From a phage: a stretch of 64,000 bases of DNA. Shown here one piece after another: positions 10,679-55,294 of the stretch; positions within the stretch are counted from its first letter, which is position 1; each line of letters opens with the position of its first letter. The translations under genes and the position numbers were made by a program. The stretch lies in NCBI GenBank assembly GCA_024686575.1, contig GCA_024686575.1_4863.1; one strand, given 5' to 3'. The notes beneath the pieces were generated by a model. The model saw nothing but the letters and a program-made list of their open reading frames with translations. It searched no databases and was not told the origin of the DNA.

Positions 10679-12355
10679 TTAGTACAACACTGGTGCAGTT
10701 TTCTCACCATTGCTCAGAAGCAAGTAAGTGTGCTGCGGCAGCTGCATCAATACAATTGCATGTGGCACGTTTTCCTGTACTGCTTCGTAGATAGACACAA
10801 CCGGGTCTGCGGTATTGCCCAGAGACGCTACCGTAACTACGTCGTGTTTATCAACAGAATGGTACATGCCTGGAATCACGATGGTGAACTGGCTCTGAAT
10901 CAGATTAACCACCTTGCCAGAATCGCTCAGCTTGATAGTCAGTTTGCGCAGAGAGTTTGCTACCATCAGGAACAGGTCACGGAACCAGTCTTCATATTCA
11001 CTTACGCCGTTGTCGCCAGCGGTTGCTGTGAACAGATCTTTTACGAAGAAATCAATATCGCTGATTTTCCGTTCGAAATCGATAGCTTTGAACTTCGGCA
11101 CATCTTTACCACGCTTAGTGCCCAGCGACAGCGCGTTGTGTACCAGGAAAGTGATATTCGCCAGGTACGCATTAGCAAAGCGAGAAATTTCACTGATAAC
11201 CACTTCTGCTTCGCTGCTGTTCGCAATCGCATATTCGTGCAGTTCTTTCGTGTTCTTACGCAGTTCATCGATCGTGCGTTTCACCTTAGCCATGATAGTT
11301 TCAACATCTTCTACCAACGCCAAGTTGTCGAGATCGGATTTCAGTGCGTCGTGCTTAGCAACGAATTGTTTCATGCGTTCGCACATGTCAGTGTTAACAC
11401 CGACCAGATACGCGCGATAGCTATCCCGTGCACGCACAATCAGGTCAGCCCCGTCGTAGAAAACAACCTCTTCATTACCGTTAAAGATATCTTGCAACGG
11501 TGTAGCCCAATCACGCGTTTCCGCGTAAACAGATTGCTTAATGCGACTGTTAGCTTCCTTCGCTGGAATCGACATTTTAAGCTCGGGGGTTTTCAGCTCG
11601 TGAAGTGCGTAGTCTTCCATCAAATCAATCTCCTGCAGAATGTTGTTAATTGGGCCATTGGTAGTGTCCTTCTCGGTTTCTTCTGTTGCGCCGAGTGGGG
11701 AAAGCACTGGGTTATTAACTGTAGCATTAGACACCGGCATTGGTTGTACAGGCACCTGTGCTGGTTCAGGCTGGGGCTGTTGTGCTGTGGCTGGGACTAC
11801 TTGCGCCGGTTGTGGGTTCAGGATAGGATCACTAACCAGGTTAAGACCTGCACCGCCAGCAATCACGGTTAGTGCCGCATCCGTGTTACCAATCTTAACA
11901 CCACCGGATGGCGCAGAAGACATGGTCAAGCCATCAGTAACACGCACACCGCCAGAACTGTTACCGCCCAGTAACCCGCCTGCGTTGCTACCACCACCTA
12001 AACCACCACTGCCACCCAAACCGCCGGACTGCTGAGAACGAATTTCGGCAAGAATCTTACCGACTTGTTCCCAAGCATTAACCAGTTTGGTGTGACGATC
12101 GTCGTTATACGCGTCGCCCGCGTTATGCACCTGCTGATAGGCAGCTGCTTTATACGCGTCGACCGCATATGCGATAACCTGTGCTTCACTACCCCCTTTG
12201 GATGCTGCCCATGCCGCAACATACGTCGCAATCTTTAACGCCTGATCTGGCGGAATGCTACGACTACGCATCACGTTATTCAACTGCGACAGTACCGCGT
12301 CCTGATCGAGGTGTTTAACGATGACGTTTTTGATTTGTTCAACAGTAATGCTCAT
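10679..12355 (-). CDS. hypothetical protein with central Gly-rich and Pro/Gln-rich linker
   Basis: 558 aa; AAGGAG Shine-Dalgarno; internal low-complexity stretch GGLGGSGGLGGGSNAGGLLGG followed by PQPAQVVPATAQQPQPEPAQVPVQP; terminator downstream. Confidence 0.7.
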   Translation of the reverse strand: MSITVEQIKNVIVKHLDQDAVLSQLNNVMRSRSIPPDQALKIATYVAAWAASKGGSEAQVIAYAVDAYKAAAYQQVHNAGDAYNDDRHTKLVNAWEQVGKILAEIRSQQSGGLGGSGGLGGGSNAGGLLGGNSSGGVRVTDGLTMSSAPSGGVKIGNTDAALTVIAGGAGLNLVSDPILNPQPAQVVPATAQQPQPEPAQVPVQPMPVSNATVNNPVLSPLGATEETEKDTTNGPINNILQEIDLMEDYALHELKTPELKMSIPAKEANSRIKQSVYAETRDWATPLQDIFNGNEEVVFYDGADLIVRARDSYRAYLVGVNTDMCERMKQFVAKHDALKSDLDNLALVEDVETIMAKVKRTIDELRKNTKELHEYAIANSSEAEVVISEISRFANAYLANITFLVHNALSLGTKRGKDVPKFKAIDFERKISDIDFFVKDLFTATAGDNGVSEYEDWFRDLFLMVANSLRKLTIKLSDSGKVVNLIQSQFTIVIPGMYHSVDKHDVVTVASLGNTADPVVSIYEAVQENVPHAIVLMQLPQHTYLLLSNGEKTAPVLY

Positions 12356-12386
12356 TGTAAATAATACTCCTTAAGAGATGTAATAA

Positions 12387-14165
12387 TTAGCGGCCGATTT
12401 TAGCAATGTCTTCTTCGGTCGGTCTGATGTACGGGTCCAGTTTAGGATTCCGCATCATTACCAAACTTGGGTTGGTCTTCATGTACGGGTTGAGGATGTT
12501 TGCCTTAAACGGTGCCGACTTAGGAATATAGTAGACGTTACCGCATTCCAGATGCGACGCGGATGCGTGCTTAGTACGGTCGTTCAAGTTAACGGTCTTG
12601 CCTCCTTTCTTCGAACGCTTAGCATCGGTTTCGGTTTGACCGATGGCGTGCGTAGACACTGCCAATACCATTGATTCTGTAGAGGCATTGAAGAAACTGA
12701 TACCGCCGTTGCTCGTAATGGTGCGCATCACCAGATTGAGCACGATCTGTTTGTTCAGTGCGTCTCGAATAGACTTCGCCGCTGTCTCTGGAGTCCGATG
12801 TTCCAACTGCCCCAGCTTCCAACGTATTTTCGAGATCGTTGTGGTAAAGCCACGTTGACCCAACAGTAGGTAATCGGTTACCGTGAGACGTTTTCCGTAC
12901 ATAGACGGAATATCATCTTGCTTGGTAAGTCGAGTGCGTACCATCAGCTGCGTGGTATACCAGAGGAAATCAAACATATCCAAATCATCAGGGATGGACG
13001 GATCGTTTGCCATCAGCTCACCACGGAAGGTGCTGTTGACATAGCGTTCACATTCCTGGAAGTGGCTGTCCATACTGCGACTCAGTTCGATATCCGAAGG
13101 CTTCAGTCCGCGAATACTGCGGCCCAACACTTCACGCCAAGACGCTGCAGAGTTGAGGTTTGCAATATCTTCGTCCATTGCCATTTCATTAATCTGTGTA
13201 AACAGCCCCGGTAATGTTGGCGCACGACCGTTCTTACTGTTCTGTTTACCTGCGTAGTAGTGCGCTGCTTTGAAGAATGCGGCAGTCGCTACCAGCAACA
13301 GATGTTCGTTTTGATCCCAACGCCCTGCATCGGTGTTAGGCATATCTTCACGTTTAACCAACAGCACGTACTGGATGGTCTTCGCGAGTTGTGGCTCACC
13401 GGATTGAATCACCACATACTTCGTTAAGTCCACATCACGTACTTTAATCGCTGGCCAAATCGCCACATCAACGCCCGCATAACGCTTCACGGCTTGTTTA
13501 AAGCCATAACGCCCAAAGAGCCAATACATCAGTGGCTTCTCATCTGTGTCGTGTCCAATCTGTCCAGTGGAGACAAACAGATTCGATGTACCCGGCAAGA
13601 ACAGCTGCTCAGGGCGACCATTCACCAGAATCTTCGTTGGTTTCTTACAGAACTTGATAGACACCTTGCGAGTGAAGTCAAAGTTAATAAAGATACCGCC
13701 GTGCTCACGACATATACCAGGTTGATGGATTACAGGTGCTACGTGGTACGTTGTACCATAGTAGTTCATTAAGCCGCCACGACGAATAAACGGCAGGCTC
13801 ATTGGTCGTTGCACCGGGCGAGGATCACCTGGAACTCGGAACGAGGCCATTACCATATACGTGTCAGTGGATGAGATGTTAATAATTGACCGGCCACGAT
13901 TATTTCGTGAATTGTTATCCGACTTCGATAACTTAAAGATAAAAGCTTCAAACGGCGACATTTGGCGACAACCTAATACCGTTAACCCTTCTGGTAATTT
14001 CGGGTTATCGATTTCATCATACGTCAACTCACGACGTAGAATGGTTGCCACACGATCATGTATCCCATCTTTAGCTTGTGTGTACCCAACTCCTTCTGCA
14101 ATTGCACGATTAAAAGGCACTATTTCGCCTGCCTCTTTAATCTTCCTAATCGCATCTTTAAACAC
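12387..14165 (-). CDS. hypothetical protein
   Basis: 592 aa ORF; no recognisable motif by eye. Confidence 0.7.
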   Translation of the reverse strand: MFKDAIRKIKEAGEIVPFNRAIAEGVGYTQAKDGIHDRVATILRRELTYDEIDNPKLPEGLTVLGCRQMSPFEAFIFKLSKSDNNSRNNRGRSIINISSTDTYMVMASFRVPGDPRPVQRPMSLPFIRRGGLMNYYGTTYHVAPVIHQPGICREHGGIFINFDFTRKVSIKFCKKPTKILVNGRPEQLFLPGTSNLFVSTGQIGHDTDEKPLMYWLFGRYGFKQAVKRYAGVDVAIWPAIKVRDVDLTKYVVIQSGEPQLAKTIQYVLLVKREDMPNTDAGRWDQNEHLLLVATAAFFKAAHYYAGKQNSKNGRAPTLPGLFTQINEMAMDEDIANLNSAASWREVLGRSIRGLKPSDIELSRSMDSHFQECERYVNSTFRGELMANDPSIPDDLDMFDFLWYTTQLMVRTRLTKQDDIPSMYGKRLTVTDYLLLGQRGFTTTISKIRWKLGQLEHRTPETAAKSIRDALNKQIVLNLVMRTITSNGGISFFNASTESMVLAVSTHAIGQTETDAKRSKKGGKTVNLNDRTKHASASHLECGNVYYIPKSAPFKANILNPYMKTNPSLVMMRNPKLDPYIRPTEEDIAKIGR

Positions 14166-14176
14166 ACCGGCCTCCC

Positions 14177-15181
14177 TCAGAGAATCATCCCAACGAGTGC
14201 TACCCCTGCAGCCAAATACGCGGGAATGGATTTCAAGAACTCCGAGCTATCTTTTCGCTGATAAGCTCGGGACTCGTATTGGTCTTTACGAACATCGGAA
14301 CGCAACTTAAGCTCATTCGTCTGGATTGCGTTAAGGGTGTTAATCCTCTCCTTCTCCAGCGCCAGATTATTAAGTTGCGTACGATAATCGAGGTCTTGCC
14401 GATTCTTTTTCTCATCGAGATCTTGCAACTTGGCCTGATACGTGGCTTCCAGCTTCGCACGAACATCTCGCAACTCTGGAATGTTATCGAGCCACCGATA
14501 ACGCCTCGCTTCATCTTCAGATGCAAACGCCCGGAACGGGGACATCGGGTCATCGAAAGCGTACATTATCATCTTACCCCCTTCGACACACTCCGCACCA
14601 CCGATTACCATGTAAATACCCTCGTCGTAATACTTCGATCGAATCGGTTCGACTTCCAACATCGTTGTATAGAACCTCAGCCACTTTAAAGGTGCTGGGT
14701 CTTCGTACTTCTGCACAACTACCACGCCCAAGGCAAATTCTTTACGATCCCCTCCTGGCTTACCAATAACCTCAGAATCGAGTTTTACTGGTTGAGTAGA
14801 GAAAGCCATTCCTAGCTTCTTCAACACCACCAAGTCGCCTCGCATTAACGCACCGATATCATCAACTACATACATCAGCGTTGTTTCGCCGTTCGTAGTT
14901 AATTCCTTACATATCTGCGCATACTGCTTTGGCGAATGTGCGTCGCGCAAACCAGATAGGTTAGCACCGTTCGCAAACACCGTATAGGTCACGTAAATCA
15001 CAATCCCAAATTCCGCCGCTGTGGTGGACGACGGGGCTAAAACAAAATGCCCGCCACTGAGTTCAGTGACGTAAATGGGAAACCCGGTATTATTTTCGTA
15101 CGTGATAGTCTTCGACACGGCACCACGGTGCATGGGCCGCTGGGTTAGCGTTGGCTGAACGTCTAAATCATAACGGTTCAT
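14177..15181 (-). CDS. hypothetical coiled-coil protein with C-terminal hydrophobic anchor
   Basis: Track ORF begins at a TTG (15205); first ATG at 15181 (MNRYDL...); C-terminal region rich in heptad-like K/E/L/Q repeats, ending in AAGVALVGMIL. Confidence 0.6.
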   Translation of the reverse strand: MNRYDLDVQPTLTQRPMHRGAVSKTITYENNTGFPIYVTELSGGHFVLAPSSTTAAEFGIVIYVTYTVFANGANLSGLRDAHSPKQYAQICKELTTNGETTLMYVVDDIGALMRGDLVVLKKLGMAFSTQPVKLDSEVIGKPGGDRKEFALGVVVVQKYEDPAPLKWLRFYTTMLEVEPIRSKYYDEGIYMVIGGAECVEGGKMIMYAFDDPMSPFRAFASEDEARRYRWLDNIPELRDVRAKLEATYQAKLQDLDEKKNRQDLDYRTQLNNLALEKERINTLNAIQTNELKLRSDVRKDQYESRAYQRKDSSEFLKSIPAYLAAGVALVGMIL

Positions 15182-36774: not shown

Positions 36775-38037
36775 ATGATGAGTAACGAGACCGATAAGAA
36801 CGATCCGGGGTATGACCCGAATACCGACTACGACAATTCGTATCAAAACCCGAATAATATCGATGCAGTACCATCGGTCGCCGACTACTTTGACCGTCGA
36901 CTGTCCGATGCGAAACCCACCACGGCGTACAACGTTAATGATGAGTTATCGGGTTGGAATGACCGTATCCGTCTTACGTTAGGTTTGGGTCTGGCTGCGC
37001 AGCGTGTGACCAACCCCTACATGGGGTTCAACCATATGATGGCGTCGAACCCGACGCCTGTTAACCGTGAGTACGGTGGTCTAACCTTTATTACCCGCCC
37101 TGACTTCAACTTGTGCTTTGACAACATTGCCAACTCGCGCAAGATGTCGAACATGGCTTCTCAGCCGAAATCGTCACTCGACTATTCCATTCTGGCAGCG
37201 TTAGACCCAGATTTTGAATTGGGGTTCTCTGATTCACCGATGGAAGATGGGCGAAGAAAGAACCGTTTGGGCACGCCATTCATGAAGGACATTATGTTTG
37301 ACAATCTTCAGGCATTCATACCATTGCTGAGTACACAGATGCTGAGCCTCTCGGGGATGCCTGACCAGTCTGTCGATAACTGGATGTCTGAAGAAGGTTT
37401 GATGCGCGAACAGTGGGGTATGGTTGACTCCACACATGAAATCAATAACCAGTACAGCATGTCGATGTCGCTGAACAACCCATACGGCAACCCTATCATG
37501 CGAATGATGGGTGTGTGGCTGGAGTATATGTCCGGCATTAAAATGGGTAAGTTCAAACCGAAGATGCGTAACTCCATCCAACGTCGCATTGACTACCAGT
37601 CAAGGATGTACGGGTTTAAATACGACGCACTCGGAAACATTACCCGTTTCTGGACAGCGTGTGTTTGTTGGCCGATGAACGATAACGCCGGTCAAATGGC
37701 GAACGTCGATAACACCAAGCCTCAATTAAATGACGACACCACAATTAACCTCAACTGGCAATGCATCGGGGCGCGCTTCGATGACCCATTGTACATGGAG
37801 ATGTTCAACTTGACGGTGTCTATGTTTAACCCGGATATGATGCCGCAACCAGGGAGTGTTGCAGCGGGCAACTTTATCCCGATTGCCGAAGACCAGCTTG
37901 TGCCGATTGCACCACAGCTACTACCGCTGTTCAACTACTACGGCTATCCGCACATCGACTCCCTGCGTCGTAAGCTGACCTGGTATGTTTATCAGGCAGA
38001 TTACCAATTCATCCTTAAACGAGCGGGCTTACTGTAA
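36775..38037 (+). CDS. hypothetical protein
   Basis: 420 aa ORF; GGAG upstream; tandem ATG ATG start; stop overlaps start of next gene. Confidence 0.7.
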   Translation: MMSNETDKNDPGYDPNTDYDNSYQNPNNIDAVPSVADYFDRRLSDAKPTTAYNVNDELSGWNDRIRLTLGLGLAAQRVTNPYMGFNHMMASNPTPVNREYGGLTFITRPDFNLCFDNIANSRKMSNMASQPKSSLDYSILAALDPDFELGFSDSPMEDGRRKNRLGTPFMKDIMFDNLQAFIPLLSTQMLSLSGMPDQSVDNWMSEEGLMREQWGMVDSTHEINNQYSMSMSLNNPYGNPIMRMMGVWLEYMSGIKMGKFKPKMRNSIQRRIDYQSRMYGFKYDALGNITRFWTACVCWPMNDNAGQMANVDNTKPQLNDDTTINLNWQCIGARFDDPLYMEMFNLTVSMFNPDMMPQPGSVAAGNFIPIAEDQLVPIAPQLLPLFNYYGYPHIDSLRRKLTWYVYQADYQFILKRAGLL

Positions 38038-40997
38038 TGACTACGAAAACGTACGACGCATTATCGAAAGACTTGCTACTGATGGCACATAACCCATCAG
38101 CAATGCAGTCGTTAATGCTGAACCAGCTCCAAGACGTGCAGGACGCCGACGGGCAAATCCTGCTACGTGACCCGACCGACCCGGTGGTCTACATGACCGA
38201 AGTCGGAATTACGATGGGCCACACGATTATCCAGGGCGATCGGGACACCATTCCGAAAATGTTCCCCTCTATGGCACAAACTCACGATGATCTGTTCCGC
38301 CACATGTCTGACGTGGATTATGTCGATGTTTTTGCCCAGCCATCACAAGCGACCTTACTGCTGCTTCTAGATGTCGACTCTCTATTAGCGAAGGCGATGC
38401 CGTTAAACGTGGCAGGTATTCGTAAAGTAGTGATTCCGCGGGATACCGTCTTTACTGTTTCAGGTTACAACTTTGCCATTCAGTATCCCATCGAAATTCG
38501 AGTGCTGCCGTATGGTACTGTTGATAATCCAGCCTTCCAGGTCTTGTGGATTACCGAAACCCAGTCACCGATATCGCCCGTAACCACTAACGCGTTGGAC
38601 TGGGAACTGACAAGTGTTCCCAGCACACCGTCGCAGATACTGGCTATCCGTATTCCGGTGATGCAGTACAGTGTAAAGGACGAGAACGATACGTTGTTGG
38701 GGCAGAACACGTTTGTGATGACGCGCACGTTCACCAACAAGTTCTTCTACGCACGGGTGTGGAATAAACCGTCCAATTCAAACACCTGGACAGAAATCCA
38801 TCACACGCACAGTCGTGACGTTTACGATCCAAACACACCTACGGCGCTGATTCAAGTCGTTAACCAGTCCATTCGCTGTACGATACCGTCTATCTACATG
38901 GCGAAGAACCTGGTAAGTGGTGAAATCCGCATGGACGTATATACGACCATCGGGCCACTCGACCTCGACGTTTCTGCATTTCCGGCGGACGAGTACACCT
39001 TCTCATTGCGCGACTTGAACGGTGAATACGATGCGGGATACATCAACCCGTTGAAATCATTCTCCATCAAAATGCTGGTTGCTGAAGAAGGCAGTTACGC
39101 CACCGGGGGGCGTACACAACTTTCGTTTGATGAGTTGCGTGACCGTGTGGTAAATAACGCTGTGGGGATTCGCAAACTGCCTGTAACGGAAAAGCAGTTA
39201 GAAGCCACCGTATCGGATTACGGTCTAACGTTATCGAAGCCAAACGATTACGTAACTGGGCGTACTTACTTCCTGACTGCGCCGATGCCGGAGTCCACGT
39301 TATCTAAAGTGAGTTCCCCTATCGGAACCATCACCGCCCCGCTGTACTTTAGCTGGGATGAACTGGTGAAACTGCCGACGGTCCGTATTAACGGCAACCG
39401 TTTGACGATTGAGCCGGATACGCTGTATCGCTTTACGGATACCAGTCTGCAAATCGATGCGGAGATGACCATCCTTGCGAAGACCATGCGTAAAGAAGAT
39501 TTGGTTAACGCGGGTAACACTAACCGTTACCTGTTCACACCGTTCCATTACGTGGTGGACATTAACAACAAATCTTGCGATGTTCGTATTTACCAACTCG
39601 ATAAACCGCAGTTGAACTCAAAACGTTTCGTTAGCACCAACGTGACAACGGAGCTGAGTGTTGTCACTGCAGATTATCAGATTGAGAAAACGAGCGAAGG
39701 TTATATCCTGCGCACTGTGACTAAGTCAGAACCGCCATACCAGGCGTTAAGTGATGACCAAGTCTTTGCGCAGATTTCCTTCTCGCCACGCAACGCAGAC
39801 GGTAAGTTGGCGTACATCAACGGCACCTTAGTGGGTCGTCAAGGTTCGGAGCGTGTATGGGAATTCTTGTTGAAAACCAATCTCGATGTTGACCGTAACG
39901 ATGAGCTGATTATCAACAACACCCGAATCACCACCGAAGTGGATGTGGACACACCTGCACCGTTGTTAACCGAGTATAACGTGTTCTACGGCTGTACGGG
40001 TTACTACCCCGGTAATTACGAACGCGCTGAAATGGATACAATGATTGTACCGCCTGCGCGCGATGGTATTGGGATTACTCATGAGATTTTCAAAATCGAG
40101 CTGGGTAAAGCCATGTCCTATTACTGGCGAAAAGCACGTGCAGTAACGGACAGCATCAACTACGAATACTACCAGAAGGACGTTCTGGCGTATTGGGAAA
40201 AGGATGTTATTAAAACCAAAGAAGATGGTGTAACGCCTGAGTATACGTACGACCCTAATGCTGTTCCACCGTTGCAAATCACGTACCTGCATCGCAAAGG
40301 CGATCCGAAAATAGACCCGGTCACCGGTGAACAAGAAATCGCACACCACGTTGGGGAGCAAATCTTCGACGGGAACGGTCAGCCTATTATTGCGAAACCG
40401 CGCAGTATTAAGTTCCGTAGTGAAATGGCTGTCTTTGATGCCCGTTATAAGTTCGCAACCTCGAAAGCGGTTAAAACGTACCTTGATAGCGTAATTGACA
40501 ACATCATCAACTATGTTACGGTGGTACTGCCTAATCTGAAACCGCTGCTGTTGGAGCAAACTGAAGGCTTCTTTGTTCCTATCACCACGATGGGTTATAT
40601 CGACGTACGTACCGAAGACGGGGTTGTGTCACCGTTGCCTGCTGAAAACCAGTTCACTGTCAAATATTACCTCACGGCAGCGAACCGCGCAAACAGCGAG
40701 CTTCTGGCACAAATCCGGAAACGGACTTCGCAAGTCATTAACGATTATCTGTCAACACATCTGACCGTTTCAGCAACCGAGATTGGTAATGCGCTACGCA
40801 CCACGCTTAACGATGCCATTATCGGTGTTGAACTCGACGACATGGGGCCAGATAAAGACCTGCGACTGTTCACTGTCATTACCGAAGCGGCACGTGCCAC
40901 GATTGGTAAGAAGCTCGATATCGAAGCCAATGGCGACATCGGTTTGAAAGATGACATCGTACTGTCGTACAACCGTCACGATACCGAAAAAGAATAA
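38037..40997 (+). CDS. hypothetical large protein (possible virion component)
   Basis: 986 aa ORF; start overlaps upstream stop; strong bidirectional terminator after stop. Confidence 0.75.
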   Translation: MTTKTYDALSKDLLLMAHNPSAMQSLMLNQLQDVQDADGQILLRDPTDPVVYMTEVGITMGHTIIQGDRDTIPKMFPSMAQTHDDLFRHMSDVDYVDVFAQPSQATLLLLLDVDSLLAKAMPLNVAGIRKVVIPRDTVFTVSGYNFAIQYPIEIRVLPYGTVDNPAFQVLWITETQSPISPVTTNALDWELTSVPSTPSQILAIRIPVMQYSVKDENDTLLGQNTFVMTRTFTNKFFYARVWNKPSNSNTWTEIHHTHSRDVYDPNTPTALIQVVNQSIRCTIPSIYMAKNLVSGEIRMDVYTTIGPLDLDVSAFPADEYTFSLRDLNGEYDAGYINPLKSFSIKMLVAEEGSYATGGRTQLSFDELRDRVVNNAVGIRKLPVTEKQLEATVSDYGLTLSKPNDYVTGRTYFLTAPMPESTLSKVSSPIGTITAPLYFSWDELVKLPTVRINGNRLTIEPDTLYRFTDTSLQIDAEMTILAKTMRKEDLVNAGNTNRYLFTPFHYVVDINNKSCDVRIYQLDKPQLNSKRFVSTNVTTELSVVTADYQIEKTSEGYILRTVTKSEPPYQALSDDQVFAQISFSPRNADGKLAYINGTLVGRQGSERVWEFLLKTNLDVDRNDELIINNTRITTEVDVDTPAPLLTEYNVFYGCTGYYPGNYERAEMDTMIVPPARDGIGITHEIFKIELGKAMSYYWRKARAVTDSINYEYYQKDVLAYWEKDVIKTKEDGVTPEYTYDPNAVPPLQITYLHRKGDPKIDPVTGEQEIAHHVGEQIFDGNGQPIIAKPRSIKFRSEMAVFDARYKFATSKAVKTYLDSVIDNIINYVTVVLPNLKPLLLEQTEGFFVPITTMGYIDVRTEDGVVSPLPAENQFTVKYYLTAANRANSELLAQIRKRTSQVINDYLSTHLTVSATEIGNALRTTLNDAIIGVELDDMGPDKDLRLFTVITEAARATIGKKLDIEANGDIGLKDDIVLSYNRHDTEKE

Positions 40998-41043
40998 AAA
41001 GCACTACCCTCTCCCGAAGGAGAGGGTAGCCTTTTATTTTATT
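40985..41043. terminator. bidirectional rho-independent terminator
   Basis: 11-bp stem CTACCCTCTCC/GGAGAGGGTAG flanked by A-run upstream and TTTTATTTTATT downstream, between convergent genes. Confidence 0.8.
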
Positions 41044-42772
41044 CGCCGTCAAGCATATTTTTGCGATTATTGCCTTTCACCAACGGGTTACGTTTGGCCA
41101 GGTTCAGTATCGTCTGCAGTGTAGCGGCAGCACCGCAACAACGACGCACCAAAGACAGGTTACGTCGCAAGCCGACGAAGAGGTCTTCATCCCCGTCTGG
41201 GGAGAATAACACCATCGAGAGTTCACGACCGTCGGTACGCAGGCCAGAAGGCTGATTAAGCTCATTCATGATGACTTCGCTAATCAGGTTAACGTATTCA
41301 ACGTTATCCTTGGTTGCTTTCTGGAACTGCTCCAACACTTTAATCGTGTTGTTAACCGCCTTATCCAGTGCACTGTAACGATTCAGGTTAGTCGCAGCGG
41401 TGTCGTTGGTAAAGCCTTGTTTACCTAACGTTACCACTACAGCCAGCAACTCACGTTCGTCACCAACCGATAACGTGCCTGCCTGACGCATTTGCTCTAA
41501 ACACTCGCGTCCCAAGAACGCAGATGCTTGTGCGTTGACCAATACCTTACCAGGCACGAAGTCCACACCATCGTCATGACCCACCAAACCACGAACTTTG
41601 TTTTCTGGGATAACGACCAAAGGTGCAGTAGCGTATTCGAATCCTTTGCGGGAAACGTCGCTGATGATGAAGTTCATCGTGGTGTTCAGCTGCGCTAACG
41701 CCTGACCGAAAATAAGCGCGGTGTCGTGTGCTGCTTTGTTAACTTGCTTACCGTTGTGCGTGGTGGTTGAACCTTGCTGATTCTTAAAACCTTCGGCGAC
41801 GCTTGGGTCAATCATCGCTTTAAAGGCACTCTGGAGCGAGCCAAAGTAACCGATAAGTTCGCTGGCAACATTCGACATCTGATGGAAGTTCAACAGGTTC
41901 GGAATACGCACACCGGCTTCGCGAGCAGACTTCGGTAACGCCTGCCAGGCTTTCTTACCCACTTCAATCGGGTAGATACCGTACGTCACGTTGTGTTGTA
42001 ACAGGGTGTCTAACAGATCGTGAATAACCTGCTGGCTTGACTGACGTTTCTTAGTGTAGCCTTTGAACAACTCAGTGAACGGCGAACGACCCAGCGCGCT
42101 GCTCAAGTCGTTCAGATACTCTTCCGCGTTCATGTTCGTAAACACTTCGTCGGCCATCGCGATAGCCAAGTTCAGGTTTTCCAGATCACGACCTTTCAGA
42201 CCCTTAGAGGCTTCGATGTATGCATCTTTCACTGCGCTGATTTTCAACTGACCGATGATAGTGTTTTCGGTCTGGGAGAAACTCTCTGCTTTTTCGCCGA
42301 CTTTCTCAGCGTAACCTTCGCCGTCGAATTCGCCATTACCAGCAAACCCGTTACCGTTGCTGATAATCCAACCGATGATTTTGATAATCGCGGTCATGAT
42401 CAACACAACCAATCCCACTTTACCTGCATTTGCCCAGGATTCGAGCGCAACAATAGTCTCTTTCTGGTGCGTGCGGGTATAGTTCGAGGTCAGGATTTTG
42501 CGAACGGCTTCGGGAATTGTACCTGGGCGAGAAGATTCAACAGCGACAGCGACATCTTTCGACAGACCTGCGCGACGCACTTCGTCAAGAATCGCGTCAA
42601 TTTGCAGAATCAGTCGAGAGCCGTAGATTAAGTCAGCTTCGTTGCGTTGCATGTACAGATTGAGCTGGTTGACAGAATCAATACGCTCGGCCATACGTGA
42701 ACGCAGGACTTCACCGATCTCCCCCAAACGCCATTTGGGGTGGGTGGCGTTACCTGTCATTTCCATGCTCAT
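41039..42772 (-). CDS. hypothetical protein with one predicted transmembrane segment
   Basis: 577 aa; hydrophobic segment GKVGLVVLIMTAIIKIIGWII near residue 120-140. Confidence 0.7.
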   Translation of the reverse strand: MSMEMTGNATHPKWRLGEIGEVLRSRMAERIDSVNQLNLYMQRNEADLIYGSRLILQIDAILDEVRRAGLSKDVAVAVESSRPGTIPEAVRKILTSNYTRTHQKETIVALESWANAGKVGLVVLIMTAIIKIIGWIISNGNGFAGNGEFDGEGYAEKVGEKAESFSQTENTIIGQLKISAVKDAYIEASKGLKGRDLENLNLAIAMADEVFTNMNAEEYLNDLSSALGRSPFTELFKGYTKKRQSSQQVIHDLLDTLLQHNVTYGIYPIEVGKKAWQALPKSAREAGVRIPNLLNFHQMSNVASELIGYFGSLQSAFKAMIDPSVAEGFKNQQGSTTTHNGKQVNKAAHDTALIFGQALAQLNTTMNFIISDVSRKGFEYATAPLVVIPENKVRGLVGHDDGVDFVPGKVLVNAQASAFLGRECLEQMRQAGTLSVGDERELLAVVVTLGKQGFTNDTAATNLNRYSALDKAVNNTIKVLEQFQKATKDNVEYVNLISEVIMNELNQPSGLRTDGRELSMVLFSPDGDEDLFVGLRRNLSLVRRCCGAAATLQTILNLAKRNPLVKGNNRKNMLDGE

Positions 42773-43212
42773 GAAATTTGCCCTTTCAGTTCTGCCATGT
42801 AGAAACCAACCACTTCCATAAAGCGGCTAATCCACAGACCGACGGTTTCCCAGATATCTTCACCGAGCGCCTGGTTGAAGATTTCACGAACAGAGAAACT
42901 TTCCAGGGCTTTAGCGCCGCCATACACGTTGCAGTAACGATTGCAGTACAGACCCACGGTCATGTCCTCAATCACGCCCAAATCAACACAGTACAGCTCG
43001 TTAACGTCGGAGACGATATTACGCATTACCGGACGTAAAAACGTCCCAGCGGCCTCTGCAGCGCCATATTGGCCATTATCAGCCAGTACCGCGTTATACG
43101 CCAGTGAGAAAGCAACCAGACCAGTCAAAGCACGCTGGGCGTGTACGCCTTTCCCTTCGTTGGTACGTTTGAAATCCAGTACCAGGTTATTTAAAGAAAC
43201 TTTGTGCGTCAT
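42769..43212 (-). CDS. hypothetical protein
   Basis: 147 aa ORF; 4-nt overlap with downstream gene. Confidence 0.65.
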   Translation of the reverse strand: MTHKVSLNNLVLDFKRTNEGKGVHAQRALTGLVAFSLAYNAVLADNGQYGAAEAAGTFLRPVMRNIVSDVNELYCVDLGVIEDMTVGLYCNRYCNVYGGAKALESFSVREIFNQALGEDIWETVGLWISRFMEVVGFYMAELKGQIS

Positions 43213-43227
43213 GTTAAGTACCCTTAC

Positions 43228-44580
43228 TTAGGAAGAAGTCGCCTGACTAAGCTTCGCAGAAGCCACACGCAGGTCATTAGAAAGATAGCGCTCCATCGTA
43301 CGCTGATAATCCACCCCAGCACGCTCACGGCGACCGCCAGGGGTCAGCGTTTTCATGATGAAGCTAAAGACGTTGTCTTTGTCTTTCACGGTTTTCAGTA
43401 GTTCGTCGATAGACGCAATGCCCTGCAGAATACGTTTACGATGTTCGTTCGCTTCTTTCGTGGTGCTGCCTTTTAAGGTGTTCAGCTCCTCCACTAAGTT
43501 ACGGCGCATCGTCTCAAAACGTTCCTGCGGCGGATCGTAGATGGTGTTGCGTGGGTCGTTCACAATCAGGCCGAACGCGACTGAGATAGTCGTGAAGAAC
43601 AGACCAACTGGATTAGTCGAAGCCACAATCAGCAGCGAAACGTTAAGCATCTCCAGCATCAGATGCACACCGTAGTTCATGTACGACGCGTTCCGGCAGA
43701 GATAGAATTGGGACGTTTCGATTTTGTACAAGGCTGACGCCAGGTACGGGGCTGCACCAAAGCGAGCTGCGAAGTCATCTGCAGCACGTTCCCAGGTACG
43801 GTTAGCGAACCCTTCCGAACCGGTAACAAACGGACGCTCAAGCAGAATGTCTGTCACCAGATGCATGTAGATGTTCTCTTTAGACATCTCTTTGCAGATA
43901 GTTTCCGGCTGATTCACTTTGGTGTTCAGCATACGTTCAACGTCTTTTACGACTTTTAAACGCACTGTCGGGTCTTCTGTTTGCATCATGCGGTTCGCTG
44001 CAGCATCCGCAATCAGGTTCGTTACCACCGTACGCATCAAGGTACGGAAATAGTAATAGACGTGACCGACTTCATGTAGAATAATCGCCGCGACTTCTAA
44101 ATCCGTTAACTCGATACCTGTCAGTAGTTTCGGGGTCAGCCAAAGTGGGGACGGCACCTTGCTGAGTTCGCCTGAAAGCTTCGCATTTTTATCGTCGAAC
44201 TCGCCGTTCAGCTCGTTCTCTTTTAAGAACTTACTGTAGACATCCAGGTCGGTGTTACCCTGCACCATCTTGCGTTGCAGGTCGGCGATGATTGGGTTGT
44301 TCGCGTCGAGCTTCGGTGGCTCCACACCCGCAAACACAACGTCCGCCACACCTAAGTCGGACCCGTTACGAGGCAGGACTGTAATACCGTTGTTGTCAAA
44401 GACCCAGGCAGCAATACCAGAACTCTGATAACCCGCTGGCGAGAAGTCGCCCGCATCACGGAACTTACGTACCACTTCCGCCAAAGAGGCGAGTTTCTTT
44501 TTATCTTGGAATCCGATGGACTCCGAGGCCACGGCTTTCGCGTCGGCCAACGAGGTTATGTGCTTTTGCCAGTGTCCCAT
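43228..44580 (-). CDS. putative membrane-associated zinc metallopeptidase (HExxH, M48/M56-like)
   Basis: 450 aa; AAIILHEVGHVYY contains HExxH; downstream TWERAADDF resembles the E-x-x-A-D third-ligand motif; hydrophobic stretch LLIVASTNPVGLFFTTISVAFGLIV. Confidence 0.65.
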   Translation of the reverse strand: MGHWQKHITSLADAKAVASESIGFQDKKKLASLAEVVRKFRDAGDFSPAGYQSSGIAAWVFDNNGITVLPRNGSDLGVADVVFAGVEPPKLDANNPIIADLQRKMVQGNTDLDVYSKFLKENELNGEFDDKNAKLSGELSKVPSPLWLTPKLLTGIELTDLEVAAIILHEVGHVYYYFRTLMRTVVTNLIADAAANRMMQTEDPTVRLKVVKDVERMLNTKVNQPETICKEMSKENIYMHLVTDILLERPFVTGSEGFANRTWERAADDFAARFGAAPYLASALYKIETSQFYLCRNASYMNYGVHLMLEMLNVSLLIVASTNPVGLFFTTISVAFGLIVNDPRNTIYDPPQERFETMRRNLVEELNTLKGSTTKEANEHRKRILQGIASIDELLKTVKDKDNVFSFIMKTLTPGGRRERAGVDYQRTMERYLSNDLRVASAKLSQATSS

Positions 44581-44650
44581 TTAGACGTTCCTTTTAGAAA
44601 ATACGTTACCCACAAATCAGTATAGCAGACACCATATTTGAGAGTAGACC

Positions 44651-46435
44651 ATGGAAATCAATACCTATTACGCACCCGAGGATGTCATCGCTAAAGAGTG
44701 CAAGCACGTCGCTTATGCGACGGACGAAGAAAAAGAAAATGACTTTGTCCTCATCAAAGAGGTCATCCATACTAAGGATGGCAGGCTTATCCCGCGCTTG
44801 GTAATGCGTGAGAATTTAAAGCGTCCGGTGTACGTTACCCGTGAAGAATATCGTAACCACCAGGAGAAAAAGGAGTTCGAAGAAAAAGGAAAATGTCAAG
44901 AACTCTGGACTACTGATGCGCAGATGGCGAAGACGTTGCAGATGGGTTTAGGTGCACGTTTCCCTGACCCGAAAAAGAACCTGAGGCGTGTTTGTACTAG
45001 CCCGTACGTTTATTGGGCCGACTTACCGATTACCAGCTGGATTAAACAGAAATACTTAAAGCGTTGGCCAAACAACATCAGTCCTAACCGTCTTTGTGTA
45101 TACGACGTAGAGACCAACGAAATGGACGGCACGAAGGAACCGTGGATCGTGTCATTTATCTTAGACGACGAAATCCATTTCTTTGGTGCTAAGAACTACA
45201 TGGACCGCATCGGTAAAAACGCGGAAGAAGTCATTCTCAAAAAAGCGCAGGAACTCTTAAGCAAAATCGAATTCGATGAGAAAGACAAAAAGACTGGCGA
45301 AAAGGTGACAAAGACCAAAGACATTATCAGTGGTTATAAAATCTTCACCTATACCTGCGCTACAGCAGGGCAGTGCATCGTCAGGATGTTCGAAGAAATT
45401 CATCCGCGTCTTCCTGATTTGCTGGTCGCATGGAACCACCAGTTCGATATTTCACGCATGTTAGAAACCTTGCAGAAAGAAGGCATCGATCCACTGGGCG
45501 TCTTTAACCATCCGGATGTGCCGGAGAAATACCGTCGTCTGTGGTTTAAAGAAGACCAGGCGAACAAAAAGACAGAATCCAAGTCACTCACCAAAGCACC
45601 GTCACAACAGTGGCACGTACTCTACTGTACTGCGTCTTTCTACTGTGTGGATGCCATGGTGTTATTCCGTTCGTTGCGTGTCCACGAAGGCCAACGTCCT
45701 TCGTACAAGTTATCTGCCATACTGTACACCGAACTCGGTTTACACAAACTCGACATTCCTGGCCTGCCGTATGAAGATAACCTGCAATGGCACATAAAAG
45801 CACAACGGGACTACCCTGCCGAATACGCCGTATACAACATGATGGATAACTTGTTAATTGTGTTGTTGGATAAGAAGACGAACGACTTGTCTTCAGCAAT
45901 ATCCATTCTGGCAGGTTTCTCGATGTACGATATCTTCCCGTCGCTACCAAAACGTATCTGTGTGGCCTTTACCTATTATCTGTATGACAAAGGATACGTC
46001 ATCGGCTCCGTAGGATCTGCAATGCGTAACGATTACGATGAAGAGGTTATCGGTACAGACGGTTGGATTGTTACCCTGACAGCATGTATGAATGCTGAGA
46101 ACGGTCTGAATAACATTCTGGAGGAGATTGACGAATATTACTCTGCGTTCCGTGGTCAAACTGCGGATGCGGACTTAACCCAGGCCTACCCTTCGGCCAC
46201 AAACATGATGAACCAGTCTCGTGAGACCACACTCATTGAACTGCTGTCCATCAATGGGGTTAGTGAAGAGATTCGACGTCGCACGGGCGTCAACTTAACT
46301 GCTGGGCGAGTTAATGCCATGGAAATAGCGACAGACTTCTTCTGCTTACCGGACAAAGACACTGTCCTGTCTACGTTCTTACGTAAGCAAGGGGAAGTAG
46401 TGACAGAGCCTATGGAGTACATCTGCGGGTTCTAA
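44651..46435 (+). CDS. family-B DNA polymerase N-terminal fragment (3-5 exonuclease domain plus motif A)
   Basis: 594 aa; Exo I-like VYDVETNE, Exo II-like VAWNHQFD, Exo III-like YCVDAM, and polymerase motif A-like DLTQAYPS; motifs B and C (KxxxNSxYG, YGDTDS) not found, so the rest of the polymerase is encoded elsewhere. Confidence 0.65.
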   Translation: MEINTYYAPEDVIAKECKHVAYATDEEKENDFVLIKEVIHTKDGRLIPRLVMRENLKRPVYVTREEYRNHQEKKEFEEKGKCQELWTTDAQMAKTLQMGLGARFPDPKKNLRRVCTSPYVYWADLPITSWIKQKYLKRWPNNISPNRLCVYDVETNEMDGTKEPWIVSFILDDEIHFFGAKNYMDRIGKNAEEVILKKAQELLSKIEFDEKDKKTGEKVTKTKDIISGYKIFTYTCATAGQCIVRMFEEIHPRLPDLLVAWNHQFDISRMLETLQKEGIDPLGVFNHPDVPEKYRRLWFKEDQANKKTESKSLTKAPSQQWHVLYCTASFYCVDAMVLFRSLRVHEGQRPSYKLSAILYTELGLHKLDIPGLPYEDNLQWHIKAQRDYPAEYAVYNMMDNLLIVLLDKKTNDLSSAISILAGFSMYDIFPSLPKRICVAFTYYLYDKGYVIGSVGSAMRNDYDEEVIGTDGWIVTLTACMNAENGLNNILEEIDEYYSAFRGQTADADLTQAYPSATNMMNQSRETTLIELLSINGVSEEIRRRTGVNLTAGRVNAMEIATDFFCLPDKDTVLSTFLRKQGEVVTEPMEYICGF

Positions 46436-52278: not shown

Positions 52279-52662
52279 TTAACTTGCATCGTGTGGAACA
52301 GTCACCCAATCGTGCCATTTTTCAGAGTAAAGACGATAAGCCATCTTTGGATTCTGATCGACACTACCGGCCGGGTTCTCATTCCACAACACGTACGTAT
52401 ATAACTCGTACGACGAAGTGTTACGGATACTTGACGTGCGGGTGACGTAGTACGTCAACCCGCGTTGGTTAAGGAACAGGCCGCTGTAATGTTCAGTGAC
52501 CATGTAGTAGTGAAACGCCTGGTTGATAGTGGCGTCGGTACAGAGTTTCTTAGCGACGTCTTCTACGCCGGGATACGCCTTTAGAATGTTTTCGAGAAAA
52601 CTTGCTAAAGTCATTCCGATGTAGGGTGGCAGCGGCTCTGCTGGACGCGGCGGAGTGAGCAT
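52279..52662 (-). CDS. hypothetical protein
   Basis: 127 aa ORF with AAGGAA Shine-Dalgarno before ATG at 52662; overlaps the 3-prime end of the helicase ORF by about 113 nt in another frame. Confidence 0.5.
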   Translation of the reverse strand: MLTPPRPAEPLPPYIGMTLASFLENILKAYPGVEDVAKKLCTDATINQAFHYYMVTEHYSGLFLNQRGLTYYVTRTSSIRNTSSYELYTYVLWNENPAGSVDQNPKMAYRLYSEKWHDWVTVPHDAS

Positions 52663-55294
52663 GTGATTTCCTTACAACGTAGGGGGATGTCGCAATACGG
52701 AACGACAATACGACATCCTTGAGTGATTTCTGACGGGCATTCAGGTAATTGCAATGCTTCGGTACGTTATACGCATGGAATAACCACACCGTTGGGTCTA
52801 TTTCACCCCATTCGTTGTGGAGAATCTTACGTGGACGACCGGCCATCTGTTCGTTCAGTTGCTGGTCTTCTACCGGGGTTGAGATGTACATGTGTACCAA
52901 CCCAGGTTTATCGACCGCAGTCCCCGCTTTCCCCGGTGTGGAGATAGAGAAGTCTGCTTGGATAAAGTCGTCATACGAATCGCCTGCATTATATTTCGCC
53001 ACCATCAGTGGATGGAATACAGGGTCACGCGATAACTTATCTTTCACATACTCGGTAAAGAACTCACACATCGCTACCGTAGCAAAGAGTATCAAACATT
53101 TTTGGCCAGGCTGATACCGTTTAAGAAACGATTTCTCAACCACATCCCAGATCATGTTTGCGTATTCTAAATGCAAGTTCTCTTTAATCAGCTTCCCTTC
53201 GAAGAGCTTGTGGTTATACGGCGTCATCTTCGACGCCCACCACGCAAACTTCTTATCATCCAGTCGATAGTACAACGCCTTCACGTCAACCACCGGAATG
53301 ATTGGAATACTGATTCGGTACTCCATTGGGAAACGTTCTAAATACCGCTCCGCGATAAAGGCTTTACTGCTACCCGGCTTAAGAGTTGCAGACATCTCTA
53401 TCGATGCCGGCGGATTCAACATTATACCAGCCATGTAAACGAGGTGAAAATGCTCGTGCACCTCATCCATCGCCACCAGACCCACACCCAGAACATCATA
53501 AAACGTATCCAGGTCCACAGGGTTAGTCGCAGCAGTGTTAATGTACTCCTTCAGGAAACGCTGTAGAGAGACCGTGGGGAGGATTATTACCTTAATACCA
53601 CGACTATCTAGCTCTCCCGACTTACCCATCTCCAGTGCGTCGTAAATCGCCTGTACGCCTGTACAAACTAACACCTCGTCACGAAGTATACGAAGTCCTG
53701 TTTCATCATCACAGACGTCAAACAGCCATTTGGGAACGTACGACGGACGGTGAATCAATGCGGTACGGGTTCCCCGTTTAACCATCGACTTCATACAGGT
53801 CTTGGTGTTGTGCGTAACAATCCACTGTCCCAGAACGTACAGATGTTCATCGTTGTCGACAGTAATGCACGAACCATGACTCTTCCCAACATACACGATA
53901 GACTTAACACGGAGTTTCAGTGTATCGTTGTATTGACCGTTGTCGCGACACAGCGCTTTCTTACGCGGGAGGTTGAACAGCATTGAAGGTGTCTTGTGCC
54001 TAATGAACACCATATAAGCCAATTTACCTTCTCTACGTTCTCCTTTGTAAGTAAAGAACGGACGTTTTGTGGATATAGTTGCAATACCACCTAACGATCT
54101 CACCAACTCCTGGACGCCCAACGCCAGCGACTCGCTGGTGCTACAATACGACGGCTGCCCTCCATCTTTATTCACGGTTCCGTCCGTGTCCATTAAACCG
54201 CGCAGCAGCTCCCAGCGTTGCTCAATCGAGCCTTCAAAATATTCATCCGGAATATATTTTCTATCAGACCCTTTCCCTAGAAGACCGTGGTCCTGCAAAT
54301 AGAGCGGCCAGGACATCGGCACTTCACGTCTGCGACGACGCATTCTATACTGATAACGATCGGCGGGAACCATCTCGGTATCGTCAGGTAAATACTTCCT
54401 CACCAGCTCGACAGTTTCTGGATCGGCTGATGTGAAGCCTACCGCGCCATTTTCACAGGCGTGGCCGTTTCCCAAGAATGCCCCCATGAGATACGGATGT
54501 ATTTTAAAGCACTTTTCACTTGTCTCTTCCGGTTCAGGTAACGGAATGTAGACTCGCGGGTTCGGCATTGCAATCAGTCGCTGAATTTCTTCCGTACTTC
54601 TTACCTGCCACCGAGTGTTTGGTGTGGTATTGACGTAGTAGGATTGCCAGAGATGCTCTTTACCGACCACAGTCTTACGTCCGTCAGCAAAAGTTATCTC
54701 GTAAAAATCCCAATCTTCATGCGGGTACACCGCCGTCACATTCGTCGGCTTCCCATCCCTACCGATTACCACATCCCCGACTTCTAGCTCTCCATGTAAT
54801 TTCCACCCACCAGGAATCCTTACACGCTGATCCCATCTACAGACCTTTCCTCTTCCTGTTTGTATCGCGAAAACCGTTTGTGAACGCGATGGATCTGTTG
54901 CGGCGGCTACGACTTCATTCTGATAATAGAAACGCGACTCTGGGTCTGTTTCTTCCATCTTGAATCCGTAATTATCAAACGTGCACTTATAAGGTTCTGC
55001 ACGTTCAGGATGGTGCTCTGTTAGCTTGTACTGAAAAGCGTATTCAATTGCTGCTCGTTGGAGGATATGTTTAATCTTCTCAGCGAACACTTTATGGAAA
55101 ATGAACGTCCTTAAAGACGGAATGTGAGCGTAGTACGCGTCACCGCGTTCCGTAGTTATTCGTCCATGTTGCTTGCCCATCTTTGGGGCGTGCATATTCT
55201 CTTCGGCCCACGCGAGTATGGCCCTTTCAGCCTGGCGGATAGGGACTTCAACCCGTACCCCCATACTCGTGTAAGTCATTTGAATTTCTACCAT
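52550..55294 (-). CDS. DExH-box (SF2-type) helicase/ATPase interrupted by an intein
   Basis: 914 aa from ATG at 55294 (GAGG Shine-Dalgarno; track N-terminal extension rejected); Walker-A-like AIQTGRGKV, motif II AMDEVHEH, motif III SAT; about 345 aa intein inserted after GRGKV. Confidence 0.75.
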   Translation of the reverse strand: MVEIQMTYTSMGVRVEVPIRQAERAILAWAEENMHAPKMGKQHGRITTERGDAYYAHIPSLRTFIFHKVFAEKIKHILQRAAIEYAFQYKLTEHHPERAEPYKCTFDNYGFKMEETDPESRFYYQNEVVAAATDPSRSQTVFAIQTGRGKVCRWDQRVRIPGGWKLHGELEVGDVVIGRDGKPTNVTAVYPHEDWDFYEITFADGRKTVVGKEHLWQSYYVNTTPNTRWQVRSTEEIQRLIAMPNPRVYIPLPEPEETSEKCFKIHPYLMGAFLGNGHACENGAVGFTSADPETVELVRKYLPDDTEMVPADRYQYRMRRRRREVPMSWPLYLQDHGLLGKGSDRKYIPDEYFEGSIEQRWELLRGLMDTDGTVNKDGGQPSYCSTSESLALGVQELVRSLGGIATISTKRPFFTYKGERREGKLAYMVFIRHKTPSMLFNLPRKKALCRDNGQYNDTLKLRVKSIVYVGKSHGSCITVDNDEHLYVLGQWIVTHNTKTCMKSMVKRGTRTALIHRPSYVPKWLFDVCDDETGLRILRDEVLVCTGVQAIYDALEMGKSGELDSRGIKVIILPTVSLQRFLKEYINTAATNPVDLDTFYDVLGVGLVAMDEVHEHFHLVYMAGIMLNPPASIEMSATLKPGSSKAFIAERYLERFPMEYRISIPIIPVVDVKALYYRLDDKKFAWWASKMTPYNHKLFEGKLIKENLHLEYANMIWDVVEKSFLKRYQPGQKCLILFATVAMCEFFTEYVKDKLSRDPVFHPLMVAKYNAGDSYDDFIQADFSISTPGKAGTAVDKPGLVHMYISTPVEDQQLNEQMAGRPRKILHNEWGEIDPTVWLFHAYNVPKHCNYLNARQKSLKDVVLSFRIATSPYVVRKSHAHSAASSRAAATLHRNDFSKFSRKHSKGVSRRRRRR
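53807..54841 (-). mobile_element. intein with LAGLIDADG homing-endonuclease domain
   Basis: Starts with Cys after the P-loop and ends VLGQWIVTHN followed by Thr; LAGLIDADG-like motifs YLMGAFLGNGHA and LLRGLMDTDGTV; in frame within the helicase ORF. Confidence 0.7.

Follow-up and report, generated by a model that had tools for sequence, protein, structure and literature searches.

The 64,000-nucleotide stretch of phage DNA analysed here (contig GCA_024686575.1_4863.1 of NCBI GenBank assembly GCA_024686575.1; hereafter referred to as the window) contains a 3.5-kb locus of three minus-strand genes, gp45, gp46, and gp47, the first of which encodes what is, judged from its sequence, a divergent M48-like zinc peptidase that is carried in the phage head. 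The locus has 99.5% DNA identity with Salmonella phage SPN3US (Seoulvirus), in which the three genes are SPN3US_0045, 0046, and 0047, and the gp45 protein is 100% identical to SPN3US_0045 (tblastn). The counterparts in phiKZ are gp84, gp85, and gp86. The identification of the locus as the gp45-gp46-gp47 late head-protein operon of an SPN3US-like chimallivirus is well supported. The positions of its features are given in Table 1.

As described in the initial annotation, which had been made from the letters of the sequence, the three co-directional open reading frames (ORFs) are bracketed by a terminator and a divergent region. The gp46 and gp47 ORFs share 4 nt (ATGA), and gp45 and gp46 are spaced by 15 nt. 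The terminator, a strong one, sits between the convergent ends of the gp47 and gp48 genes. When the divergent gap was scanned for sigma-70-like promoters, no site was found there, as is to be expected of a phage that has RNA polymerases of its own. In PHROGs, all three products carry the label "unknown function" (gp45 is PHROG 2767). They are nevertheless established head proteins: gp45, gp46, and gp47 were detected when virions and heads of SPN3US and a tailless mutant were analysed by mass spectrometry (PMC5694885, PMC10052503). In these two papers, gp45 is listed as "Head, unknown function", and a metalloprotease is mentioned in neither.

Table 1 Features of the gp45-gp46-gp47 locus and its flanks, with positions in the window (aa, amino acids; KD, Kyte-Doolittle; TM, transmembrane; AF2, AlphaFold2)
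Feature	Position	Strand	Remarks
gp45 gene	43228..44580	minus	450 aa; predicted M48-like zinc metallopeptidase, head protein
gp46 gene	42769..43212	minus	147 aa; head protein, assigned by profile to the phiKZ gp85 / Goslar gp66 family
gp47 gene	41039..42772	minus	577 aa; essential processed head protein, assigned by profile as a divergent phiKZ gp86 / Goslar gp65 family member
gp45 propeptide, 20 residues ending A-S-E(20)	44521..44580	minus	gp245 prohead protease site
HEVGH, gp45 residues 169-173	44062..44076	minus	two zinc-ligand His and catalytic Glu (predicted)
ERAAD, gp45 residues 264-268, within NRTWERAADDFA	43777..43791	minus	predicted third zinc ligand Glu E264; M48-type (S/N)RxxExxAD motif
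gp45 hydrophobic helical hairpin, residues 303-343	43552..43674	minus	AF2 helices 303-320, 324-340
YDxPxxR motif, gp45 residues 348-354	43519..43539	minus	near-invariant, past the hairpin
gp47 propeptide, residues 1-111	42440..42772	minus	protease sites AVE-79, ALE-111
gp47 TM-grade hydrophobic helix, residues ~117-139	42356..42424	minus	start of the mature protein; KD maximum 2.58
Bidirectional intrinsic terminator	41003..41030	both strands	12-bp stem, 7 GC pairs, T-runs on both strands
Divergent intergenic gap, presumed promoter region	44581..44650		70 bp; between gp45 and polB-like gp44
Flanking gp44	44651-46435	plus	594 aa; polB/RNase-H-like DNA polymerase subunit; cg21, phiKZ gp082
Flanking gp48	38037-40997	plus	986 aa; baseplate-wedge-like virion protein; cg23, phiKZ gp087

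Predicted active site, hairpin, and processing of gp45

The HEVGH and the downstream ERAAD segment pointed out in the initial annotation are both present in gp45. The latter belongs to a motif that reads NRTWERAAD and fits the (S/N)RxxExxAD pattern that M48 enzymes carry about 60–95 residues past HExxH. For the family-level analysis, 63 diverse homologues (21–66% identity; mean column identity, 29%) were aligned. The positions invariant in all members are G137, H169, E170, G172, H173, E264, D268, R354, and E430; the predicted active-site residues H169, E170, H173, E264, and D268 are thus unchanged in 63/63. The HExxH motif is expected by chance 0.011 times in a protein of 450 aa. It occurs twice in the ~19,900-aa proteome of the window, and ExxAD follows only the gp45 copy. 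The second copy (DEVHEHFHLVY, at residue 613 of a 914-aa minus-strand ORF, 52550-55294) is without a downstream ExxAD; in a proteome of the window's size, chance alone would give about 0.5 HExxH motifs.

The profile searches pointed to a single peptidase family. Pfam Peptidase_M48 (PF01435) was the sole peptidase-family match of gp45, at 17.7 bits, just below the cut-off of 20.3, and it was matched by 29 of the 63 family members at E ≤ 0.01 (best, 2e-5); one other member matched Zincin_1. In NCBIfam, gp45 reached only HtpX, at an insignificant E = 0.045. Against PDB sequences, the only significant matches of the family profile were M48A enzymes (ZMPSTE24 at E = 3.9e-5), and in the profile alignment the HExxH of gp45 falls onto H335/E336/H339 of ZMPSTE24 and E264 onto the third zinc ligand, E415. 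The best Foldseek matches of the gp45 model were ZMPSTE24 and Ste24p, with probability up to 0.96, and the predicted structure has strands immediately N-terminal to the active-site helix. Other annotators' GenBank notes reached HtpX by HHpred for a gp45-family protein; the M48 similarity of the family is recorded only in a few such notes (Moabite, AH04, and Proteus phage 7). PF05569 (M56) gave no match for gp45 at E ≤ 1, nor for the 63 homologues at E ≤ 0.01, and PF06114 (ImmA/IrrE, M78) gave none for gp45 or among the 63 homologues. The C-terminus of gp45 is a helical domain and not an M56-type extracellular sensor, and its neighbours are head, polymerase, and baseplate genes.

Because the family profile aligns onto the zinc ligands of ZMPSTE24, gp45 is to be placed as M48-like and not as M56 or ImmA. 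Hence, of the M48/M56-type resemblance noted in the initial annotation, the M48 half is retained and the M56 half is dropped, and the search for ImmA/IrrE that it proposed came back empty. On these sequence grounds, gp45 is a divergent M48-like gluzincin with an intact predicted active site, while its membership in M48 proper is borderline by the profile and fold scores. We strongly infer that gp45 is an active membrane-type zinc peptidase.

The long hydrophobic stretch that had also been reported for the 450-aa protein was located at residues 303–343, where the maximum of the Kyte-Doolittle (KD) value over 19 residues is 1.64. In 63/63 members, the most hydrophobic window of the protein lies within the segment aligned to residues 292–347 (median KD, 2.27), while the sequence and length of the hairpin vary among the homologues. 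Since the hydrophobicity is kept without sequence conservation, the pattern suggests that the two predicted helices of the hairpin face lipid rather than protein.

It is known from mass spectrometry that gp45 is cleaved at ASE-20 and thereby loses a 20-residue N-terminal peptide (PMC5694885, PMC10052503). In the alignment, the tripeptide corresponding to A18-S19-E20 has a small first residue (mostly S/G/A) and E at the last position in about 58–61 of the 63 members. This S/G/A-x-E site is kept family-wide, and therefore head targeting and processing appear to be a family trait.

Gene order, fusions, and the families of gp46 and gp47

The gp45 family was found in 224 phage records across the chimalliviruses by tblastn (phiKZ-like phages, 2e-10; Goslar, 1e-12; Moabite, 9e-17), and an exhaustive profile search of metagenomes gave 2,421 clusters at 50% identity. 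In the published core-gene table, the gp45 orthologues are the Chimalliviridae core gene cg22, that is, phiKZ gp084 and Goslar gp067. A peptidase of this kind is therefore not "unusual" in such a phage, as the initial annotation had it. The conservation of the three-gene neighbourhood, which it had proposed to check, was borne out: the order peptidase > gp46-like > gp47-like is kept in about 70 of 80 viral contigs from IMG/VR and in the phiKZ-like, Goslar, and Moabite genomes. The conserved arrangement consists of a divergent polB-like gene, a peptidase of 404–497 aa (as ORF calls) always with HExxH, a protein of ~130–170 aa, a protein of ~370–585 aa that often has a hydrophobic helix near residue 80–125, and a convergent gene of ~970 aa. 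Both flanking genes (gp44-like and gp48-like, the latter ~970–986 aa) are conserved neighbours across the family.

Two side observations concern this arrangement. One is that an extra gene of 141–147 aa lies between the gp45 and gp46 homologues in the SPFM and SPLA phages and in Wellington. Its copies in Salmonella phage SPFM16 (L087:1462-1884; LR535915.1 45161-45586) and in an Erwinia phage Wellington-like contig (L009:8386-8829) are homologous to each other (1e-44), have no Pfam match, and show no relation to the three families. The window lacks the gene, which looks like an accessory insertion in an otherwise fixed operon. The other is that in the SPFM1, 5, 6, 7, 8, 9, 10, 12, 14, 15, and 20 genomes (LR535901-LR535913), the matches to the region consist of 9–40 short pieces of 65–98% identity with broken ORFs. 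Such fragmentation suggests indel/frameshift sequencing errors rather than biology.

In some relatives from metagenomes, the peptidase is also found joined to a neighbour. Nine members of the peptidase family stand out by their length; in seven of these, the peptidase is preceded on one polypeptide by a gp86-family module or by two, and one such gp86::peptidase fusion (1,206 aa) was confirmed as a single ORF on an ENA contig, where it is followed by a gp85-like gene and a further gp86-like gene. The fused forms keep the catalytic residues of gp45, and the junction of the 1,206-aa protein, A-M-E|AIDFQ, keeps a prohead-protease site. Such a protein resembles a polyprotein from which cleavage within the prohead would yield the two separate proteins. 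These natural polyprotein-like fusions argue for co-packaging of the peptidase and the gp86-family protein in equal numbers (1:1). The available copy-number figures are consistent with such co-packaging: Goslar gp067 is estimated by mass spectrometry at ~32–76 copies per virion, against 55 for gp65, and the spectral-count ratios (SC/M) in SPN3US are similar, being 2.99 for gp45 and 2.17 for gp47.

The second gene product, gp46, is by its profile matches a member of the phiKZ gp85 / Goslar gp66 family, which forms the dimeric centre of the capsid vertex-binding complex. An iterative hidden Markov model (HMM) search started from gp46 converged on 59 proteins in 59 syntenic loci, one per locus, including phiKZ-like gp85 (6e-16) and Goslar gp066 (1e-24), and hhalign against the Goslar clade gave 95% (E = 3e-8). 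A gp46-family profile built without phiKZ sequences matched PDB 8y6v_E (gp85) at E = 0.037, as one of three matches at E ≤ 1 among 177,635 PDB sequences. A single-sequence search of gp46 against PDB sequences found nothing, nor did hhalign of the SPN3US-clade gp46 profile against a single phiKZ-like sequence.

Similarly, gp47 is, on profile evidence, a divergent member of the phiKZ gp86 / Goslar gp65 family. Its strict iterative search (E ≤ 1e-6) stays inside its own clade, the next matches (9e-5 to 1e-3) being all syntenic counterparts. A profile–profile comparison of disjoint sets, 12 sequences of the SPN3US clade and 63 sequences of other lineages, gave 97.4% and E = 1.4e-11 over 364 columns. 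A gp47-family profile without phiKZ or Goslar sequences matched Goslar gp65 (11fg) at 3e-17 and phiKZ gp86 (8y6v_G) at 1.9e-6, with a noise floor of ~1e-4. Nothing was found by a single-sequence search of gp47 against PDB sequences or by hhalign of the SPN3US-clade gp47 profile against single phiKZ-like or Goslar gp65 sequences; for both gp46 and gp47, the homology to the solved chains emerged only via intermediate sequences and disjoint deep profiles. The fold-level test failed: Foldseek of the gp47 model (predicted local distance difference test, pLDDT, 82) against the PDB gave nothing above probability 0.11 and no 8Y6V chain. Its matches to alpha-pore-forming toxins (SmhA, AhlB) and IpaD, at probability 0.03–0.05, were rejected as noise and were not used. 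The equivalence of gp47 and phiKZ gp86 had been proposed earlier from synteny alone (PMC5694885, PMC10052503).

Two further observations were made on these families. First, PDB entry 36za has chains that go by the name "Inner-peripheral baseplate spoke(s) gp032/gp32" (110 chains of 142 aa and 55 of 801 aa) and match the gp85 and gp86 family profiles, and the 801-aa chain can be aligned one to one with Goslar gp65 minus its first 133 residues. The chain counts fit the capsid vertex complex, and the molecule names therefore look mislabelled. Second, the gp86 family is duplication-prone: Goslar gp65 (gp065) contains two tandem module copies and gp64 (gp064) is a further paralogue (L004:8737-11541, 11601-14393), and 2–4 tandem paralogues occur in several metagenomic lineages (L032, L033, L063, L075, L076, and L081), some upstream of the peptidase gene.

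The single TM segment reported in the initial annotation for the 577-aa protein was located at the start of mature gp47 (Table 1). As determined by mass spectrometry (PMC5694885, PMC10052503), the prohead protease gp245 cuts gp47 at ALE-111 and at AVE-79, the latter given as AVE-75 in Table 2 of PMC10052503. The helix with which mature gp47 starts matches the one that comes first in the deposited Goslar chain. Of 81 gp86-family members, 54 have its equivalent with KD ≥ 1.8, whereas phiKZ gp86 and Goslar gp65 have a helix there that is no more than amphipathic. In the gp47 clade, the invariant residues cluster at 36–135, and the mature body falls to ~33% identity. That the propeptide and the helix are far more conserved than the mature body suggests a conserved partner that the propeptide binds in the course of assembly. 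In SPN3US, gp47 is essential, its amber mutant giving normal-looking dead particles, and it was inferred by Ali et al. (2017) to be an ejection protein with a TM helix (PMC5694885). The assignment to a vertex family qualifies this published "ejection protein" label. Since gp47 is essential and has a TM-grade helix while the phiKZ orf85-86 genes, whose products have no such helix, are deletable, the family may have diverged in function.

Candidate sites of action of gp45

The reading that we prefer, tentatively and with reservations, is that gp45 is stored at the capsid vertices, is delivered at infection, and acts at the inner membrane or at the membrane of the early-infection vesicle. The peptidase would be co-incorporated with the gp86-family protein, and inside the DNA-filled head it would not be icosahedrally ordered and its hairpin would be shielded by protein. 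At infection, it would exit with the DNA, and the hairpin would insert in the host inner membrane or in the membrane of the early-phage-infection vesicle. At the membrane surface, it would then cut proteins of the host or proteins injected along with it, like the M48 enzymes HtpX, Ste24, and Oma1. A role at a host-derived membrane after ejection is possible in this sense. The gp45-family peptidase may also be essential: in a transposon screen of phiKZ, PHIKZ084, 085, and 086 were without disruptive insertions (0 in the 1,242 bp of orf84).

Several points weigh against this delivery of gp45. The proteins so far shown to be injected are phiKZ gp90, 92, 93, 95, 97, and 174 and Goslar gp58, 60, and 61, and gp45/gp84/gp067 is not among them, while the head proteins phiKZ gp89 and gp162 stay in the capsid. 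The operon partners of gp45 are capsid-bound structural proteins, and the hairpin of SPN3US is among the less hydrophobic ones in the family (KD, 1.55–1.64). The insertion gap in orf84 could be polar, and orf85-86 are likewise without insertions and yet deletable. The literature on phiKZ gp84/PHIKZ084 yielded no functional study and no injection data.

A more specific form of the idea, which we regard as rather unlikely, is that the gp45/gp84 family is the membrane-active enzyme of the injected cargo, that its hairpin enters the vesicle, which derives from the inner membrane, along with the TM-helix forms of the gp86 family, and that the proteolysis by this enzyme is needed to build, maintain, or open the vesicle. 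If so, the cleavage of host membrane proteins or the release of the genome to the nascent phage nucleus would be example roles, and gp45 would be the first named phage-encoded membrane component of the early-infection vesicle. In the nucleus-forming jumbo phages, the DNA is protected by a lipid vesicle at first and later by a protein shell, and the literature leaves open how the vesicle forms and which phage proteins occupy its membrane; gp45 is a testable candidate. In cg22, a universally conserved core gene whose product is packaged in the virion is tied, and even fused, to vertex proteins. The genes and their virion association are already known. Apparently new, in that we did not find them in the literature, are three points: that the predicted active site, the lipid-grade hairpin, and the protease site are invariant throughout the family; that SPN3US gp46 and gp47 can be assigned by profile to the families of the vertex complex; and that natural gp86::peptidase fusions form putative polyproteins.

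The strongest alternative keeps gp45 in the head throughout. The peptidase would work only in the prohead, docked to the vertex complex via its hairpin (possibly on the gp47 helix), and would never be ejected, which we consider doubtful yet worth serious attention; we give similar, limited credence to the accompanying proposal that it degrades the propeptides or scaffold fragments freed by the serine prohead protease gp245 and so lets the fragments exit the head. That gp45 is itself a head protein trimmed by gp245 fits well here, since a zymogen-like cascade could follow, and so do the conserved operon, the natural fusions with the capsid-bound gp86 family, the Goslar copy range, which is close to the 55 of the vertex complex, and the similar SC/M values of gp45 and gp47. 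Moreover, the SPN3US propeptides of 111–254 residues need clearing and are found as smaller fragments (PMC5694885, PMC10052503). However, every mapped head cleavage site of SPN3US fits the A-x-E rule of gp245, with no second specificity reported, and hydrophobicity that is kept without sequence is atypical of a fixed protein interface. The gp45 family is present in neither of the solved capsid models (phiKZ and Goslar), and its profile finds no phage chain in the PDB. In addition, phiKZ orf85-86 are deletable while orf84 tolerates no insertion, and therefore serving the vertex complex is not the whole role of the peptidase. If gp45 did act only in the capsid, these phages would have two head proteases of different mechanism; we found no such second protease described for them.

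The remaining explanations fare worse. That gp45 is a structural head protein with a vestigial peptidase fold and no need for catalysis is improbable: most genomes annotate only a "virion structural protein", and M48 is matched with only modest scores in both sequence and fold, but pseudo-enzymes lose their catalytic residues, whereas the five of gp45 are invariant at 21–66% identity and are kept in the fusions as well. Still less credible is a non-virion protease module of the host membrane that serves envelope remodelling, signal processing (BlaR1- or ImmA-like), or superinfection exclusion. Here, the initial annotation had spoken of a "membrane-associated module". The hydrophobic segments, found in two of the three proteins, are real, as is the M48-like peptidase; the proteins themselves, on the other hand, are capsid-internal head proteins by mass spectrometry (PMC5694885). 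All three are in purified virions and heads, and the prohead protease processes two of them; the genes next to the operon encode a DNA polymerase subunit and a baseplate protein, and the capsid-protein families to which the two partners belong have solved structures. Neither M56 nor M78 gives a profile signal, a sensor domain and an adjacent repressor are both lacking, and nothing supports signal processing or superinfection exclusion. The reading as a membrane module with superinfection exclusion is thus only partly supported, and its non-virion form is largely refuted by virion proteomics. Finally, a chance HExxH in a helical non-protease, which together with the lack of any peptidase profile hit was what the initial annotation had named as speaking against its proposal, is the least plausible of all, given the M48 match, the low chance expectation, the correctly spaced ExxAD, the strands N-terminal to the active-site helix, the invariant catalytic residues, and the significant PDB sequence matches, which are confined to M48A and aligned on the zinc ligands.

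Comparison with known systems

Among the known peptidases, gp45 is most like the M48 enzymes (Ste24/ZMPSTE24 of M48A, HtpX of M48B, Oma1 of M48C, and BepA/YcaL/LoiP). It has in common with them HExxH on one helix, a Glu ligand in (S/N)RxxExxAD (91 residues downstream in gp45), beta-strands just N-terminal to the active-site helix, and hydrophobic membrane-type helices. It differs from them in several respects: gp45 scores below the Pfam gathering threshold at ~15–20% identity, has a cleavable 20-residue N-terminal peptide followed by an N-terminal alpha/beta domain of ~130 residues, carries its single hairpin after, and not before or around, the catalytic Glu, and ends in a helical domain of ~100 residues with its own invariant residues, R354 and E430. 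To our knowledge, capsid packaging has not been described for any M48 enzyme. Among the phages, phiKZ gp84, Goslar gp067, and Erwinia RAY gp286 are orthologues of equal length, with the same motifs and position, and all are virion-associated; phiKZ gp84 and Goslar gp067 differ in being only ~23–25% identical to gp45 and in carrying the literature label "putative virion structural protein".

The proposed delivery of gp45 can be compared with T7 gp14/15/16 and P22 gp7/16/20, capsid-internal proteins that have hydrophobic segments, exit with the DNA, and insert in the host envelope. We know of no T7 or P22 ejection protein that is a metallopeptidase. With respect to the vertex-binding complexes (phiKZ gp85 dimer and gp86, PDB 8Y6V; Goslar gp66 and gp65, PDB 11FG), gp46 and gp47 belong by their profiles to the same families, and gp47, like phiKZ gp86, is cut by the prohead protease to give a mature protein beginning with a conserved helix. 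This likeness is one of sequence; what is known of the two proteins in SPN3US itself is their head association by mass spectrometry. The differences are that the N-terminal helix of mature gp47 has a KD of 2.58, against 1.03 and 0.66 for the amphipathic helices of phiKZ and Goslar, and that gp47 is essential in SPN3US while phiKZ orf85-86 are deletable. Lastly, the prohead proteases (SPN3US gp245, phiKZ gp175, and T4 gp21) resemble gp45 in being head-resident proteases, and gp45 is a substrate of gp245. They are T4 gp21-like enzymes that cut after A/S/G-x-E and have a known role, whereas gp45 would belong to an unrelated class, the metallopeptidases.

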